Assembly: GCA_016187515.1 (NCBI GenBank)
Contig: JACPJN010000007.1
Location: 68,046-132,045, forward strand
DNA length: 64,000 nt
DNA from: Candidatus Uhrbacteria bacterium
GTDB taxonomy: Bacteria; Patescibacteriota; Patescibacteriia; GWA2-47-26
Direction of reading: 5' to 3'
The notes under the pieces are model-generated. The model was not told the DNA's origin, did not search any database, and saw only the letters and a list, made by a program, of their open reading frames with translations. This document shows, piece after piece, positions 40,797-60,468 of the stretch (positions are counted from its first letter, which is position 1; each line of letters begins with the position of its first letter). Made by a program: the position numbers and the translations under genes.

Positions 40797-40874
40797 TTGA
40801 GTTATTAAGTTAAGGGTTATTAAGTTATTGAAATCACTACTTAATAACTTACTAACTCAATAACCTAATAACTC
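40797..40874. repeat. Family-3 palindromic word-repeat
   Basis: gattgagttattaagttaagggttattaagttattg ... cttaataacttactaactcaataacctaataact. Confidence 0.8.
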
Positions 40875-41676
40875 CAAATCCGGCCAAGGTTCCCAGCACA
40901 ATTGAAGGCAGCGCCGGCAAGGGGCGGCGATGACCCAACTGGAACAAGAGATCCGTGCCTAAAAGACCGAGCAGTGACCCGGCCGCGGCGCCGACGCCAA
41001 ACCAAAATCCTTCCCGCGCCGCGGCGGCCACAAATACCGCGGGGAGCGCCAGGTCTCCGGTTCCCAGAAAGAAAAAACCCTCGCCCGGGGTAACCGCGCG
41101 CAGCTTTTTAAAAAACCATCTTGGACGCTCGGGAAGGATCAGCGCGAAAATCACTCCCTTATCAAGCAGACCCTTAAACATGGTTACCATGTGGTGGGTT
41201 CCATAAACCGCGATCACATCATAGAGACCCAGAATAATCAGCACCACTGCCATTGATTCCCAAGCAATCACGCTTCCCAACGAGGCCGCGATACCGGCAA
41301 TCCCCCCGAGCATAATCACATTCTGCGCGATAATCAGAGGAAACAAGTAGCGCAGGGCAATCAGCCCCAGGGCTAAAAATAACGCCTCCTGCGGAAGATA
41401 CAGCTCCAAAAGCGCCCAAAGACCAATCAGAATCGACAAGCCAAAAATCGCTTCAAATACGACTCGGCGCCGGAGCTTGCGGATCAGAAAAAAAAGCACT
41501 GCCGTGGATAATAAAAAAGAGAAAATCAGCCGCGGCGCGGATAATTCCAGCGTTGTTCCGGAACCGACCAGGATATCGGCGCTCCTTAAGCGCGCGGCGG
41601 CCGATAAAACCAGCGCCTCGGTTGCCGCCAGCAGAAGCACGGTTTGTAAGATAAGAAAAAGCTGCTTTTTGGACAT
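40852..41676 (-). CDS. Presenilin / signal-peptide-peptidase-like intramembrane aspartyl protease homolog (A22-like)
   Basis: Polytopic membrane protein with ordered motifs LGLYDVIAVYG (YD), FLGTGDLALP (GxGD) and LPALPSI (PAL). Confidence 0.55.
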   Translation of the reverse strand: MSKKQLFLILQTVLLLAATEALVLSAAARLRSADILVGSGTTLELSAPRLIFSFLLSTAVLFFLIRKLRRRVVFEAIFGLSILIGLWALLELYLPQEALFLALGLIALRYLFPLIIAQNVIMLGGIAGIAASLGSVIAWESMAVVLIILGLYDVIAVYGTHHMVTMFKGLLDKGVIFALILPERPRWFFKKLRAVTPGEGFFFLGTGDLALPAVFVAAAAREGFWFGVGAAAGSLLGLLGTDLLFQLGHRRPLPALPSIVLGTLAGFGVIRLLS

Positions 41677-41726
41677 AAGACCTCTTGCAAAACAATATGT
41701 TCTACTGTAATTGGTTTGGCCGAGGG

Positions 41727-41963
41727 TTACTGGCCGAAAATGGCTTGCTCAATGGCCGAGGCGTCTCCTTCGGAGATTTTGAACTCGGCGCGCAGCTTAC
41801 GCAGACCTTTGCGCAACTCCGCTTCATATAGCCCGCCGGACCGCGCTTGCTTAAGCAGCTCTTTGACCTGCGCCTGTTCTTTCCAGCCCAACCGCTCGCG
41901 AAGTTTATATAAAATCGCGTTGATTTCCCGATCGGAGAGTTGTTTAGCCATATATTTAGTCAT
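41727..41963 (-). CDS. Hypothetical small protein (78 aa)
   Basis: ORF between secY and the protease gene. Confidence 0.4.
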   Translation of the reverse strand: MTKYMAKQLSDREINAILYKLRERLGWKEQAQVKELLKQARSGGLYEAELRKGLRKLRAEFKISEGDASAIEQAIFGQ

Positions 41964-42036
41964 CAGTTCACAGTCGTCAGTTCACGGCATTGTATTGGCG
42001 CAACTGTGAACCGACGTCTGACGACTGTAGACTCAA
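41958..42036. repeat. Family-4 palindromic word-repeat (CAGTTCAC / GTGAACTG words)
   Basis: tcatcagttcacagtcgtcagttcacgg ... caactgtgaaccgacgtctgacgactg. Confidence 0.75.
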
Positions 42037-43317
42037 TTAGGTTTCATACTCATGCATAGTCAGCTGCGCTTCAATCTGCGTAAGGGTCTCAATCACCACC
42101 GAGACCACGATGAGCACGCTGGTTCCGCCAATCGCGAGCGCCTGTAATCCGGTCAGCCGCTGCATGGCTAAAGGAAGTACCGCGATGACTGCCAGAAATA
42201 AGGCGCCCACGAGGATCACGCGCGAGGTGACGTATTGAAGATAAGCCGCGGTGGGCTTTCCCGGACGAATCCCGGGGACAAAGCCGCCTTGTTTTTGAAG
42301 ATTTTCGGCAATCTGACCCGGATGAAAGACCACGGCCGTATAGAAGTACGTAAAAATAAACACCAAAATAAAGTAGAGTATTCCATATACTAAATTATTT
42401 TGAAAAAAATTGACTACCCATTGCGCGAGGCGGACGACTGTGAGATTGCTGGCCTGCAGGAAAAACTGGGCAATCATTGGCGGAAAAAGCACGATGGAGA
42501 TCGCGAAGATAATCGGGATAACGCCGGCCATATTCACCTTCAGCGGCAGGTGCGTGTCCACTCCGCCATACATTTTCATGCCGCGCACGCGCCGAGCGTA
42601 GGAAACCGGGATATTGCGCTGCGCTTGAGTGATGAGCACCACGCCCACCACCGTCGTAAGCGAAAGGGCGGCAAACAGCGCGAAATTGAGCGCTTGGGTA
42701 GGATCAAAACTCACCAGCACCTGCTGCGCCGCGGTCGGCAGACCGGCGATAATGCCGGCAAAGATCAAGAGTGAGATTCCATTGCCAACCTTGCGTTCCG
42801 TGATCAACTCTCCAATCCACATCAAAAACATGGTTCCGGCCGTAAGCGTCAGGATGGTAATGATATAGGCCTGGGGAGTGAGAATTCCAATAATCTGAAT
42901 CGGCGACTGGCGCAGCAGAGTAATCAGTCCAAACCCCTGGAGAGCCGCCAGCGGAACCGCGGCGTAGCGGGTCCATTGGTTGATTTTCTGGCGACCCGCC
43001 TCGCCTTCTTTCTGAAGCGCTTCCAGCTGGGGAACGACCATGGCGAGCAGCTGAAAGATAATCGAGGAAGTAATGTAGGGCGCCACCCCCAGAGCCACTA
43101 CTGAAAAACTCTCCATGGTCCCGCCGGAAAAGACATTCAAGAGTCCTAAAATCGCGTTGCTTCGAAAAAACGCCTGCAGATTCTCGGTATTCACGCCGGG
43201 AATGGGAATGTGCGCGGCTAACCGAAAAATAAAAAGCATCGCCACCACGTACAGGATACTACGGCGCAAATCCTTAAGACGCCAGATTCGGATGATCGTG
43301 CTCAAGATGCGATTCAT
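42037..43317 (-). CDS. secY: Preprotein translocase SecY
   Basis: Start trimmed to ATG 43317 (MNRILSTIIRIW). The track ORF's first 34 aa are read-through into the family-2 repeat. Confidence 0.9.
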   Translation of the reverse strand: MNRILSTIIRIWRLKDLRRSILYVVAMLFIFRLAAHIPIPGVNTENLQAFFRSNAILGLLNVFSGGTMESFSVVALGVAPYITSSIIFQLLAMVVPQLEALQKEGEAGRQKINQWTRYAAVPLAALQGFGLITLLRQSPIQIIGILTPQAYIITILTLTAGTMFLMWIGELITERKVGNGISLLIFAGIIAGLPTAAQQVLVSFDPTQALNFALFAALSLTTVVGVVLITQAQRNIPVSYARRVRGMKMYGGVDTHLPLKVNMAGVIPIIFAISIVLFPPMIAQFFLQASNLTVVRLAQWVVNFFQNNLVYGILYFILVFIFTYFYTAVVFHPGQIAENLQKQGGFVPGIRPGKPTAAYLQYVTSRVILVGALFLAVIAVLPLAMQRLTGLQALAIGGTSVLIVVSVVIETLTQIEAQLTMHEYET

Positions 43318-43326
43318 AGTTGCGTT

Positions 43327-43407
43327 GAGTAAATCAGGTAAATCAAGCGAGACAAGTGAATCAAGTGTTTGACTGGCCTGATTTACTTGATTCACTTGAT
43401 TTACTCT
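43327..43407. repeat. Family-2 palindromic word-repeat between rplO and secY
   Basis: gagtaaatcaggtaaatcaagcgagacaagtgaatcaagtgtttgactggcctgatttacttgattcacttgatttac. Confidence 0.8.
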
Positions 43408-59297: not shown

Positions 59298-59304
59298 AAA
59301 TTAT

Positions 59305-59385
59305 GAGTACGAATTACGAATCTTGTCCGAATACTACGAATCGTATTCGTGGTATTCGCAACGCCATTCGTTAATTCGTACACAG
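59305..59385. repeat. Family-5 palindromic word-repeat (close relative of 30672-30762)
   Basis: gagtacgaattacgaatcttgtccgaatactacgaatcgtattcgtggtattcgcaacgccattcgttaattcgtacacag. Confidence 0.8.
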
Positions 59386-59389
59386 AGCG

Positions 59390-59857
59390 TTAGCGGGCGA
59401 AGTGGGCGAACGCCTTGTTCGCTTCCGCCATCCGGTGCACGTCTTGCCGCTTTTTTACCGCCGCGCCTTCTCCCTTGGCCGCGCTCATGAGCTCCTCGGA
59501 AAGCTTAACGCCCATGGGAGCGCCTTTGCGGGAGGCGGCCGCGTCAATCAGCCAGCGCGAAGCTAGAAAAAATCTCCGCTCCGGGCGCACGGGAAAGGGA
59601 ATCTGATAATTGGCTCCGCCAACCCGTTTGCTGCGAACCTCCAAAGTCGGGCTCACGTTCTTAAAGGCCTCCTCAAATACTTTGAGCGGATCCTGCTTAG
59701 ACAGCTCGTGAACGCGCGTAAGCGCCGCGTAGACGACCCGGCTCGCCGTCGATTTTTTGCCGCGGCGCATCACATAATTAATAAACTTGGCGACATCGTC
59801 GCGTGAGTATTTAACATCCGCCTGAATTTCTCGTTTGGAGGGTTTTTTATGCCTCAT
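59390..59857 (-). CDS. rpsG: 30S ribosomal protein S7
   Basis: VAKFINYVMRRGKKSTASRVVYAAL. Confidence 0.9.
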   Translation of the reverse strand: MRHKKPSKREIQADVKYSRDDVAKFINYVMRRGKKSTASRVVYAALTRVHELSKQDPLKVFEEAFKNVSPTLEVRSKRVGGANYQIPFPVRPERRFFLASRWLIDAAASRKGAPMGVKLSEELMSAAKGEGAAVKKRQDVHRMAEANKAFAHFAR

Positions 59858-59942
59858 AAAACGCTGAACGTATGCGGAACTTTAGCTGAACCTATGCGGA
59901 ATTCAGTGTATGTTCCGCTTTGGTTCAGTGTAGGTTCCGTGA

Positions 59943-60359
59943 TTATTTCGGACTCTTGACTCCGTACAAACTCCGTCCGCGCTTGCGTCCTTCCACGCCG
60001 GTCGCGTCATAGACGCCGCGCACAATATGATAGCGCACGCCGGGCAAGTCCTTGACGCGGCCGCCGCGAATCAGCACAATGGAGTGTTCTTGGAGATTGT
60101 GTCCAATTCCGGGGATATAAGCCGTTACTTCTTTGCCATTCGACAGCCGGACGCGCGCGATTTTCCGCAGCGCCGAGTTGGGCTTCTTCGGGGTCATGGT
60201 CGTAACCTTAAGACAAACTCCCCGCTTAAATGGCGCGCCCTTAGGCAGCTCATATTCATAACGATTAAGCGTATTGAGCACGCTTTGAAGCGCCGGGGCT
60301 TTGCTCTTATAACTCTGCGCCTGACGGGGTTTGCGAATAAGCTGATTGATAGTAGGCAT
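59943..60359 (-). CDS. rpsL: 30S ribosomal protein S12
   Basis: [13 protein letters not shown]. The track start at 60407 is read-through into the family-2 repeat. Confidence 0.9.
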
Positions 60360-60370
60360 AGATTGCTTTG

Positions 60371-60468
60371 AGTAAATCAGGTGAATCAAGCGAGACAAGT
60401 AAATCAAGTACTTGATTTACCTGATTTACTTGCTTTACTTGATTTACTTGCTTTACTTACAAGTGCAT
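60371..60468. repeat. Family-2 palindromic word-repeat upstream of rpsL
   Basis: gagtaaatcaggtgaatcaagcgagacaagtaaatcaagtacttgatttacctgatttacttgctttacttgatttacttgctttac. Confidence 0.8.

Follow-up and report, generated by a model that had tools for sequence, protein, structure and literature searches.

The enterobacterial repetitive intergenic consensus/intergenic repeat unit (ERIC/IRU) sequences of enterobacteria and the Correia/NEMIS elements of Neisseria are imperfect palindromes of roughly 100-150 bp that occupy transcribed intergenic sites in operons. Their presence varies between related species, and in mRNA they fold into structures open to RNase E or RNase III. Each kind follows a single conserved consensus; those of Neisseria carry, in addition, 26-bp terminal repeats and a TA duplication. 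Rickettsia palindromic elements (RPEs), likewise 100-150 bp long, occur in a small, host-dependent genome and include in-frame copies in protein genes. A long imperfect hairpin in nearly each spacer is known from the RNase III hairpins of phage T7 early genes and from plastid intercistronic regions and 3′ untranslated regions (UTRs); RNase III acts on the T7 early mRNA stems and on Correia elements. Here we describe, in a 64-kb stretch of a Candidatus Uhrbacteria genome (Patescibacteria, or Candidate Phyla Radiation, CPR; the whole stretch is hereafter the window), several families of hairpins with arms of tandem short words that fill nearly all junctions of the ribosomal protein (r-protein) gene cluster. 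ERIC and Correia sequences show neither word periodicity nor saturation of a ribosomal operon, and the T7 and plastid hairpins are unique, conserved and functionally characterised structures, unlike the multi-copy families with insertion polymorphism found here. We put the probability that the window elements are non-autonomous foldback-type mobile repeats, tolerated in intercistronic junctions that lack Shine-Dalgarno sequences, at about 70%.

Repetitive extragenic palindromic (REP)/REPIN sequences, with their REP-associated tyrosine transposases (RAYTs), are likewise short palindromic interspersed repeats that lie between co-directional genes and are transcribed; they form several families per genome that are long-lived and conserved across species, and some copies lie in genes, including repair genes (PMC3733652, PMC2817692). 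The window elements resemble them in being dispersed (~35 copies or fragments in 64 kb), mostly between co-directional genes and without target-site duplication. REPs are marked by a tetranucleotide tag, GTAG or CGTC, that stays unpaired at one end of each 20-40 bp palindrome (PMC3733652). In our family alignments neither tag occurs consistently at element ends, the CGTC of the family called F4 (GACGTCAG) being internal and base-paired, and the elements are single 60-110 nt hairpins with tandem 7-11 nt words, not 20-40 bp units or dimers. A RAYT is lacking among the ~50 open reading frames (ORFs) of the window, which gave no Y1_Tnp or other transposase match, and the literature searched contains no report of REPs in Patescibacteria. 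We also rejected a classical miniature inverted-repeat transposable element (MITE), as there is no target-site duplication. No parent insertion sequence with the same termini lies in the window.

In architecture, the closest analogue appears to be the eukaryotic Foldback transposon (Drosophila FB, Galileo, Tetris), which likewise has long inverted arms of tandem sub-repeats with little between them, exists mostly as non-autonomous copies and varies in sub-repeat number (PMC4079207, PMC3573991). Foldback transposons, however, measure hundreds of bp to kb, have sub-repeats of 10-220 bp, are eukaryotic, and come with P or MULE-type transposases and target-site duplications, whereas the elements described here are bacterial, shorter than 140 nt and free of duplications; they would be too short, and their hosts too distant, for homology to be expected. 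Tandem heptamers that are mostly intergenic, keep a fixed orientation and end a few bases before a start codon are a further likeness, shared with the TAACTGA repeats of Beggiatoaceae and cyanobacteria; in related species the spacers are shorter and free of repeats, and a translational role has been proposed (PMC4679880). In F4 the 3′ arm has the sequence CTGTGAA-CCGTGAA-CTGATGA-CTGACGA immediately ahead of the ATG. TAACTGA repeats are direct and built of a single word with no complementary arm (one inverted case among 170 sets), whereas a complementary second arm is the defining trait of the window elements, which comprise many word families.

The ribosomal cluster lies on the minus strand. 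As assigned by Pfam, its gene order begins rpsL-rpsG-fusA-[hicB-hicA-recQ-like-orf109]-tuf-rpsJ-rplC-D-W-B-rpsS-rplV-rpsC-rplP-rpmC and continues after rpmC with rpsQ-rplN-X-E-rpsZ-rpsH-rplF-R-rpsE-rplO-secY. The gene rpmD (L30) is absent from the cluster, as is typical of the CPR. The nearest species representatives are Parcubacteria GW2011_GWA2_47_26 and an Uhrbacteria metagenome-assembled genome, each with 73% identity in L2. A preliminary description of this DNA had named 19 r-protein junctions as filled, and each of the 19 does hold an element. With curated start codons, 21 of the 25 minus-strand junctions from the rpsL promoter to secY are occupied, the additions being rpsL|rpsG, with a new family of 11-nt period, and rplE|rpsZ, with a short ACGAAT hairpin. 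The four junctions without an element are rpmC|rpsQ (2 nt), rplX|rplE (5 nt), rplF|rplR (10 nt) and rplR|rpsE (36 nt). With families numbered by their words, the elements from the rpsL promoter to the gene past secY are the following (window coordinates).

60471-60499, minus strand: promoter-like TTGACT-N17-TAGGAT upstream of rpsL; the same -35/-10 layout is conserved in the relative L083
60360-60470, minus strand: F2, GTAAATCAA words, period 9, upstream of rpsL in the promoter-to-ATG interval
59858-59942, minus strand: rpsL|rpsG hairpin, new family, CACTGAAC / GCGGAAC words, period 11
59298-59389, minus strand: F5, ACGAAT words, rpsG|fusA; the site is empty in L083 (TAAGTATG)
54691-54778, minus strand: F3, GTTATTRR, period 8, upstream of tuf
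53422-53496, minus strand: F3, tuf|rpsJ
52990-53058, minus strand: F5 one-armed ACGAAT array immediately past the rpsJ stop; a like array lies at the same place in L180
52168-52235, minus strand: F6, CACGGAT, rplC|rplD
51462-51537, minus strand: F4, GTTCACA/GACGTCA heptamers, rplD|rplW
50955-51035, minus strand: F4, rplW|rplB; site empty in L178 (8 nt) and L179 (5 nt)
50040-50123, minus strand: F2, rplB|rpsS; site empty in L178 (10 nt) and L179 (14 nt)
49622-49703, minus strand: F4, rpsS|rplV
49198-49288, minus strand: F3 long-loop subfamily, rplV|rpsC
48489-48556, minus strand: F2, rpsC|rplP; the first word contains the rpsC stop TAA
47995-48074, minus strand: F3 long-loop subfamily, rplP|rpmC
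47500-47590, minus strand: F5-type hairpin, rpsQ|rplN, overlapping the 3′ end of rpsQ
47049-47127, minus strand: F4, rplN|rplX
46133-46179, minus strand: short F5-type hairpin (9 bp), rplE|rpsZ
45854-45946, minus strand: F3 long-loop subfamily, rpsZ|rpsH
45371-45451, minus strand: F4, rpsH|rplF; 91% identity to the F4 copy of the other species (L083)
43844-43938, minus strand: F6, rpsE|rplO
43318-43412, minus strand: F2, rplO|secY; the 5′ arm and loop encode the last 12-14 L15 residues (SKSSESSKSGQSNT), with the stop in the 3′ arm
41952-42036, minus strand: diverged F4, secY|orf78

The junction elements are imperfect hairpins of 45-110 nt that reach from the stop codon to within 3-20 nt of the next ATG; the main hairpin, of 16-48 bp, starts -15 to +15 nt from the end of the stop codon. 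Against mononucleotide shuffles, occupied spacers fold with z-scores of -2.6 to -5.5 and empty spacers with -1.6 to +0.5, and an ungapped palindrome scan of the window returned 17 hits as against 0-1 in Markov shuffles. The two arms are 80% complementary (801/1003 positions). Tandem-word periodicity exceeds that of shuffled arms in 22 of 28 elements (arm autocorrelation, P<0.01), with periods of 9 nt in F2, 8 in F3, 7/14 in F4, 8 in F7, 7 in F8 and 11 in the rpsL|rpsG family; in F5, F6 and F9 the words recur at irregular spacing. A sliding-window minimum free energy profile did not discriminate the elements from the rest of the window, since coding sequence rich in GC reaches the same folding strength as the AT-rich elements, and palindrome scans and per-spacer z-scores were used instead. 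What is unusual about the elements is the single long stem, not the absolute folding energy.

At least six families and about 30 copies had been proposed. The repeats are real, and both counts rise: with F8 (AAATTACAAA), F9 (GGGAGGGG/CCCCTCCC) and the rpsL|rpsG family added, the 64 kb contain no fewer than nine families, in ~35 copies or fragments. Together they make up roughly 4-5% of the 64-kb stretch and ~12% of the ribosomal cluster. Orientation is almost uniform (F4 6/6, F2 5/6). An assembly artefact had been judged unlikely and is ruled out by two independent Logan assemblies, L001 and L002, which reproduce 2.6 and 1.4 kb of the window at 100% identity, four elements included. Both of these contigs end within elements; the repeats break short-read assemblies. 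An identical contig occurs in 14 sequencing runs, SRR12113428 being one.

That the elements are insertions is seen from the same sites in other genomes. We located the same genes in 80 related Patescibacteria loci (given L numbers) and measured each junction. The median r-protein spacer is 9 nt (1287 junctions, 72 relatives), and 17% of junctions reach at least 55 nt; long junctions are missing altogether from 11 lineages, and in 9 lineages half or more of the junctions are expanded. Closer relatives, reached through the protein database, settle the point. In L178, whose L2 is 91% identical, rplW|rplB is TAA-ATTAATAT-ATG and rplB|rpsS is TAG-TTAATAAATT-ATG; in L179 (L2 85% identical) the same junctions are 5 and 14 nt long. 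The window carries an 81-nt F4 element at the first of these sites and an 84-nt F2 element at the second. When GTTCAC...GATGACTC is excised from the window rplW|rplB junction, aaaTA^AATATatg remains, a stop codon and a 4-nt spacer with no flank duplicated, to be compared with aaaTAAATTAATATatg in L178. Likewise, rpsG|fusA is TAAGTATG in L083, as against a 92-nt F5 element in the window. The comparison with close relatives that had been proposed as a check thus yielded empty sites in L178, L179 and L083. Each copy has entered an intercistronic junction that formerly measured 1-15 nt, frequently within the stop codon or next to it.

Copies of one family at unrelated junctions resemble each other too closely in non-repetitive parts for separate origins to seem plausible. 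F4 copies are 86-93% identical and agree in their loop, in the order in which word variants follow each other and in the tail that precedes the ATG, and three F3 copies have a common 20-nt loop. The differences within a family are largely insertions and deletions of whole words. These alignments indicate that the copies of a family derive from one ancestral sequence and that, after insertion, they vary through gain and loss of whole words. A metagenome scan with the F4 arm returned one contig from another species, L083. Its F4 copy is 83-91% identical to the window copies, and its rpsL, rpsG and fusA are 74, 69 and 77% identical at the nucleotide level; the copy lies upstream of rpsL, where the window carries F2. 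The comparison indicates that families persist across species and are better conserved than the flanking r-protein genes. Greater conservation than r-protein genes, at a different site, points to a trans-acting recognition constraint or to horizontal transfer, either of which would be a hallmark of mobile families such as REPINs. In both species the ATG of rpsL is separated from a conserved promoter-like site, TTGAC-N17-TAGGAT, by the upstream element, which is therefore transcribed as a 5′ UTR. Non-autonomous mobile hairpins were among the roles offered in the preliminary description, and this one is well supported by the empty orthologous sites, the 86-93% identical copies, the different families at the same site in a related species and insertions in ORFs.

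Several elements overlap ORF ends or sit within ORFs. L15 of the window ends in ...AGGSVE-SKSSESSKSGQSNT, with 12-14 extra residues contributed by F2; ten relatives stop right after AGGxxx. F9 insertions in a CobA/BtuR-type gene and in recO add proline-, glycine- and glutamate-rich peptide segments in-frame. These in-frame F9 copies, and the F2 copy at the L15 C-terminus, recall RPEs; RPEs are, however, unrelated in sequence, have no tandem words and do not cluster in intercistronic junctions. The F9 copies in RecO and CobA also resemble the intragenic REPs reported in repair genes.

Copies thus occur beyond the ribosomal cluster as well, one of them upstream of a plus-strand gene. The presence of such outside copies had been noted, and it stands; the one placed downstream of lon (33132-33220) lies upstream of it in the gene sense, and the one reported as a hairpin at 2531 is a one-armed direct word array. 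One-armed word arrays without a hairpin also occur at 8453-8516, 8895-8924 and 52990-53058. The remaining elements of the window are these.

61790-61875, plus strand: F7, TTAATTAAC words, period 8, with its end ~15 nt short of the ATG of plus-strand rpmB
40792-40875, minus strand: F3, between a signal-peptide-peptidase gene and adk
36250-36345, minus strand: F9 palindrome (CCCTCC/GGGAGG) within the recO ORF, with RecO_N and RecO_C matches on either side
35740-35880, minus strand: F8, AAATTACAAA / ATCCCAAAT words, period 7, between a class II aminoacyl-tRNA synthetase gene and recO
33132-33220, minus strand: F2 upstream of lon, the sole F2 copy in opposite orientation
30662-30764, minus strand: F5, between a ybaK-like gene and lon, close to the rpsG|fusA copy
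10317-10400, minus strand: F2 between two TSP3-repeat protein genes; the upstream stop TAA lies within the first word
6541-6630, minus strand: F3, ftsA|ftsZ
2525-2608, minus strand: one-armed direct array, CACGGAT then ACGAAT words, between a ribonucleotide reductase gene and the CobA-type gene
2205-2320, minus strand: F9 palindrome in-frame within the CobA/BtuR-type ORF, splitting its Pfam match in two
2072-2095: F8 half-element in the same CobA/BtuR-type ORF as the F9 copy
245-340, minus strand: F9 palindrome close to the window's left edge

A further site with G/C-rich palindromes of the GGGAGGGG/CCCCTCCC kind is 29240-29340. One-armed arrays of the AATTAG/TTAATTA type stand directly before start codons or past the rpmB terminator (8453-8516, 8895-8924 and 62090-62150); they resemble the TAACTGA-type direct repeats and may be remnants or precursors of F7 hairpins.

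The translation signals of the cluster bear on how such insertions would be tolerated. A Shine-Dalgarno sequence precedes none of the 25 r-protein genes in the window, and 88-97% of the corresponding starts in 80 relatives are also without one. Non-ribosomal genes of the window do have strong GGAGG sites, for example upstream of the starts at 39999, 38487, 37951 and 27342. Because the r-protein genes of the clade lack Shine-Dalgarno sequences, a spacer would need only to keep a few A/T-rich bases before the ATG unpaired. We considered a split Shine-Dalgarno sequence brought to the ATG by the hairpin and rejected it, there being no such motif in upstream 3′ ends or before r-protein starts in the window or its relatives. 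A universal stop module, in which stop-rich words whose period is no multiple of 3 would close every reading frame, was rejected too: the sense strand of the elements closes 2.1 frames compared to 1.9 in shuffles, and only F3 closes all three.

If the elements are tolerated mobile repeats, several small self-complementary interspersed repeat families would have recently colonised this genome, with copies made by a trans-acting, sequence-specific enzyme encoded elsewhere. Since no target-site duplication is seen, this enzyme probably recognises a DNA hairpin. The ribosomal cluster would look saturated because it offers ~25 tight co-transcribed junctions in 15 kb and insertion elsewhere within it would be lethal; the filled spacers would then be the survivors of insertion into those junctions. 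A palindromic insert would fold back in the mRNA and restore an ancestral-like stop-to-start distance of ~2-25 unpaired nt. A ribosome at the stop codon would melt the lowest 10-13 bp of the stem and free the strand just upstream of the next ATG, so that translational coupling could be kept or even tightened. Stems of at least 20 bp would be substrates for RNase III, as a possible consequence of the insertions and not the reason for their presence, and a tightly folded spacer would offer Rho little free RNA. An RNA-level role of the elements, such as REP-like stabilisation or processing by RNase III, would be a plausible consequence of insertion.

The other RNA-level roles that had been suggested fared less well. 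The elements do not look like attenuators: their stems are AT-rich (element GC 24-54%), no U-tract follows (downstream sequence is, for example, CAATATATG), and a terminator scan flagged none of them on the sense strand, whereas genuine terminators in the window have a GC-rich stem with a U-tract. The scan does flag a conserved hairpin before rplC, in the 220-nt rpsJ|rplC spacer of the window (52839-52900, minus strand). This terminator-like hairpin, GGCTAGnnGC...GCnnCTAGCTTTTG, has 18 pairs and a U-tract and recurs in L004, L180, L181 and most of 59 relatives; the spacer is long in every relative (~100-750 nt, mostly 175-500). It has no Rfam match and is a candidate attenuator or leader for rplC-rplD, placed after rpsJ instead of before it. 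Rfam gave no match at gathering score anywhere in the window, and at E<1 only sub-threshold generic hairpins (microRNA precursors, a plastid 3′ UTR).

Selection for stable stem-loops in the mRNA, also raised earlier, is unsupported. In 21 of 32 elements it is the antisense strand that forms the more stable fold (mean difference 3.3 kcal/mol, Wilcoxon p = 0.01), and among transition mismatches between the arms A·C outnumbers G·U in the sense strand by 82 to 44 (binomial p = 0.0009), both p-values being optimistic because copies within a family are not independent. A sense-strand A·C is a G·U in the antisense strand, and seven of nine families lean toward A·C in the sense strand. Selection for stable mRNA hairpins would be expected to drive the asymmetry the other way; its source could be a mutational bias, selection against excessively stable stems in the mRNA, or whichever strand serves in mobilisation.

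Several observations weigh against the elements being tolerated mobile repeats. Neither the family alignments (F4, F5 and F2 flanks) nor the comparison of empty with filled sites reveals a target-site duplication or a conserved target motif, and Pfam finds no transposase or other mobilising gene among the ~50 ORFs of the window. Simple mobility explains neither the tandem-word arms nor the mismatch asymmetry between sense and antisense strands. Orientation is near-uniform with all host genes on one strand, which makes a replication-linked and a transcription-linked bias inseparable. Finally, occupancy per junction is higher in the cluster (21/25) than in co-directional junctions elsewhere in the window (~10/21), which could reflect function, not tolerance. 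Across 78 relatives, palindromes are no denser inside the S10-spc cluster (0.094 per kb) than outside it (0.107 per kb), so specific targeting of the cluster is not established; the idea that ribosomal operons are specially targeted is weakly supported.

The excess in the cluster is one reason to ask whether the hairpins are instead functional RNA elements, selected junction by junction to segment, stabilise or couple the ribosomal polycistron as RNase III sites or REP-like 3′ stabilisers, with their repeat nature secondary. Their constant position, from the stop codon to shortly before the ATG, and their uniform orientation fit this proposal, as do the presence of different families at the same junctions in related species and the fact that several CPR lineages have filled most r-protein junctions independently. 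RNase III has substrate length requirements, and stems of 16-48 bp are long enough. RNase III sites as a class have ~20 bp or more of mostly continuous double-stranded RNA and are cleaved in vivo; the predicted stems contain bulges, and the RNase III gene lies outside the 64-kb window. Most relatives cope with junctions of 1-20 nt, including L178 with its 91% identical L2. The same families occur in 5′ UTRs, in unrelated operons and inside ORFs, and relatives show no enrichment of palindromes in the cluster. In most elements the sense RNA is less stable than its complement, and it carries the excess of A·C over G·U. Covariation gives no signal: RNAalifold finds 1-2 compensatory pairs in F4 and F3, a result that is uninformative because the copies are too similar. 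We consider selection for function at each junction unlikely as the origin of the pattern.

It is less likely still that each hairpin arose in place, as a palindrome or microsatellite grown by replication slippage and hairpin-templated repair with no copy-and-paste step. Arms of tandem words can pair in several registers, copies differ by whole words in numbers that are balanced across both arms, one-armed direct arrays exist, and the words are specific to each CPR lineage, all of which fits such growth. Unrelated junctions nevertheless share a non-repetitive loop, the order of word variants and tails (86-93% identity), distant sites have identical loops, copies within the window cluster by family and not by location, and F4 is common to another species at a different site. 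Slippage would thus explain variation after insertion, not those shared features. The chance that the elements reflect collapsed or chimeric repeats in the assembly, or a guide-RNA array of CRISPR or tandem interspaced guide RNA (TIGR) type, is close to negligible. The elements are repetitive, and CPR genomes are known TIGR-Tas hosts, in which TIGR arrays repeat a 36-nt unit in tandem, each unit comprising edge and loop repeats as well as two spacers, beside a Nop-domain Tas gene (PMC12045711). Here, by contrast, single hairpins are dispersed and have periods of 7-11 nt, with no tandem 36-nt units, and the scanned ORFs of the window include neither a Nop-domain Tas nor a cas gene; the identity of two independent assemblies across four elements speaks against an artefact.

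Hairpins of the same architecture recur more widely. Tandem-word hairpins with 7-, 8-, 9- or 14-nt words are present in roughly 20 of the 80 relatives' loci, with words specific to each lineage: ATTGCTAT in L004, AGCAAGATA and AAAGCTT in L014, ACATTTG in L018 and L023, TAGCTTG in L033, AGTGATAA in L058, ATGGCAT in L071, GTAGTGA in L076 and AACACAT in L082. When searched by exact words, only the ACGAAT-type hairpins of the window recur in these loci (three under strict and a few more under loose conditions), and F2, F3, F4, F6 and F7 are absent. The r-protein junctions of L003, L052 and L075 hold another kind of palindrome, ~130-210 nt long and bounded by CCCGTTAGAAG...CTTCTAACGGG, which is MITE-like and apparently widespread. 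A phage origin was rejected: scans of viral contigs with F2 and F3 words gave 94 loci, which hold direct tandem, mostly coding-like, repeats, with the hairpin arrangement only in L165. Full-text searching of the literature found no description of such elements in the CPR. A broader proposal, which we advance only tentatively and regard as doubtful in its full form, is that Patescibacteria carry undescribed, phylum-wide miniature foldback elements whose arms grow by word slippage and which are spread by a hairpin-recognising enzyme, and that in such lineages these have become part of Shine-Dalgarno-less operon expression, through termination-dependent unmasking of starts or RNase III segmentation into hairpin-capped units.

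Some neighbouring features of the window stand apart from the hairpins. The gap between fusA and tuf (54779-57100, minus strand) holds an inserted HicB/HicA toxin-antitoxin pair, a RecQ-like helicase and a 109-aa ORF. Among relatives the fusA-tuf distance ranges from a few hundred nt up to ~3.7 kb, and this variability makes the junction look like a hotspot of gene insertion. At 13822-24813 (minus strand) lies a single 3663-aa ORF; the one after it, of 687 aa, matches T4SS-pilin and Big_5, and the two probably encode giant surface proteins. Two near-identical copies of a perfect 36-bp palindrome, AACAAAATAAGGTCCGGCCGGACCTTATTTTGTT, at 27353-27388 and 28093-28128, flank a PaaX-like gene with a Cas2-like domain (27501-28103). 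They form a separate two-copy family and are possibly operators or bidirectional terminators.

CPR genomes are regarded as streamlined (~1 Mb), yet here the most essential operon cluster carries recently inserted repeats. A saturated essential operon in a streamlined genome, the tandem-word architecture and conservation across species are what sets these elements apart. If they are mobile, the CPR would host active, long-lived families of mobile hairpins, and the enzyme that mobilises them could represent a new activity in the transposition or recombination of single-strand DNA. Such repeats would also explain the fragmentation of CPR ribosomal loci in short-read assemblies, which affects the r-protein marker sets used for phylogeny and binning, and they would provide natural insertion polymorphisms usable in strain tracking. 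The cluster would then be a natural experiment on how much structured RNA is tolerated between the cistrons of a coupled, Shine-Dalgarno-less operon; if the hairpins are functional instead, they would represent a new mode of organising ribosomal protein expression.

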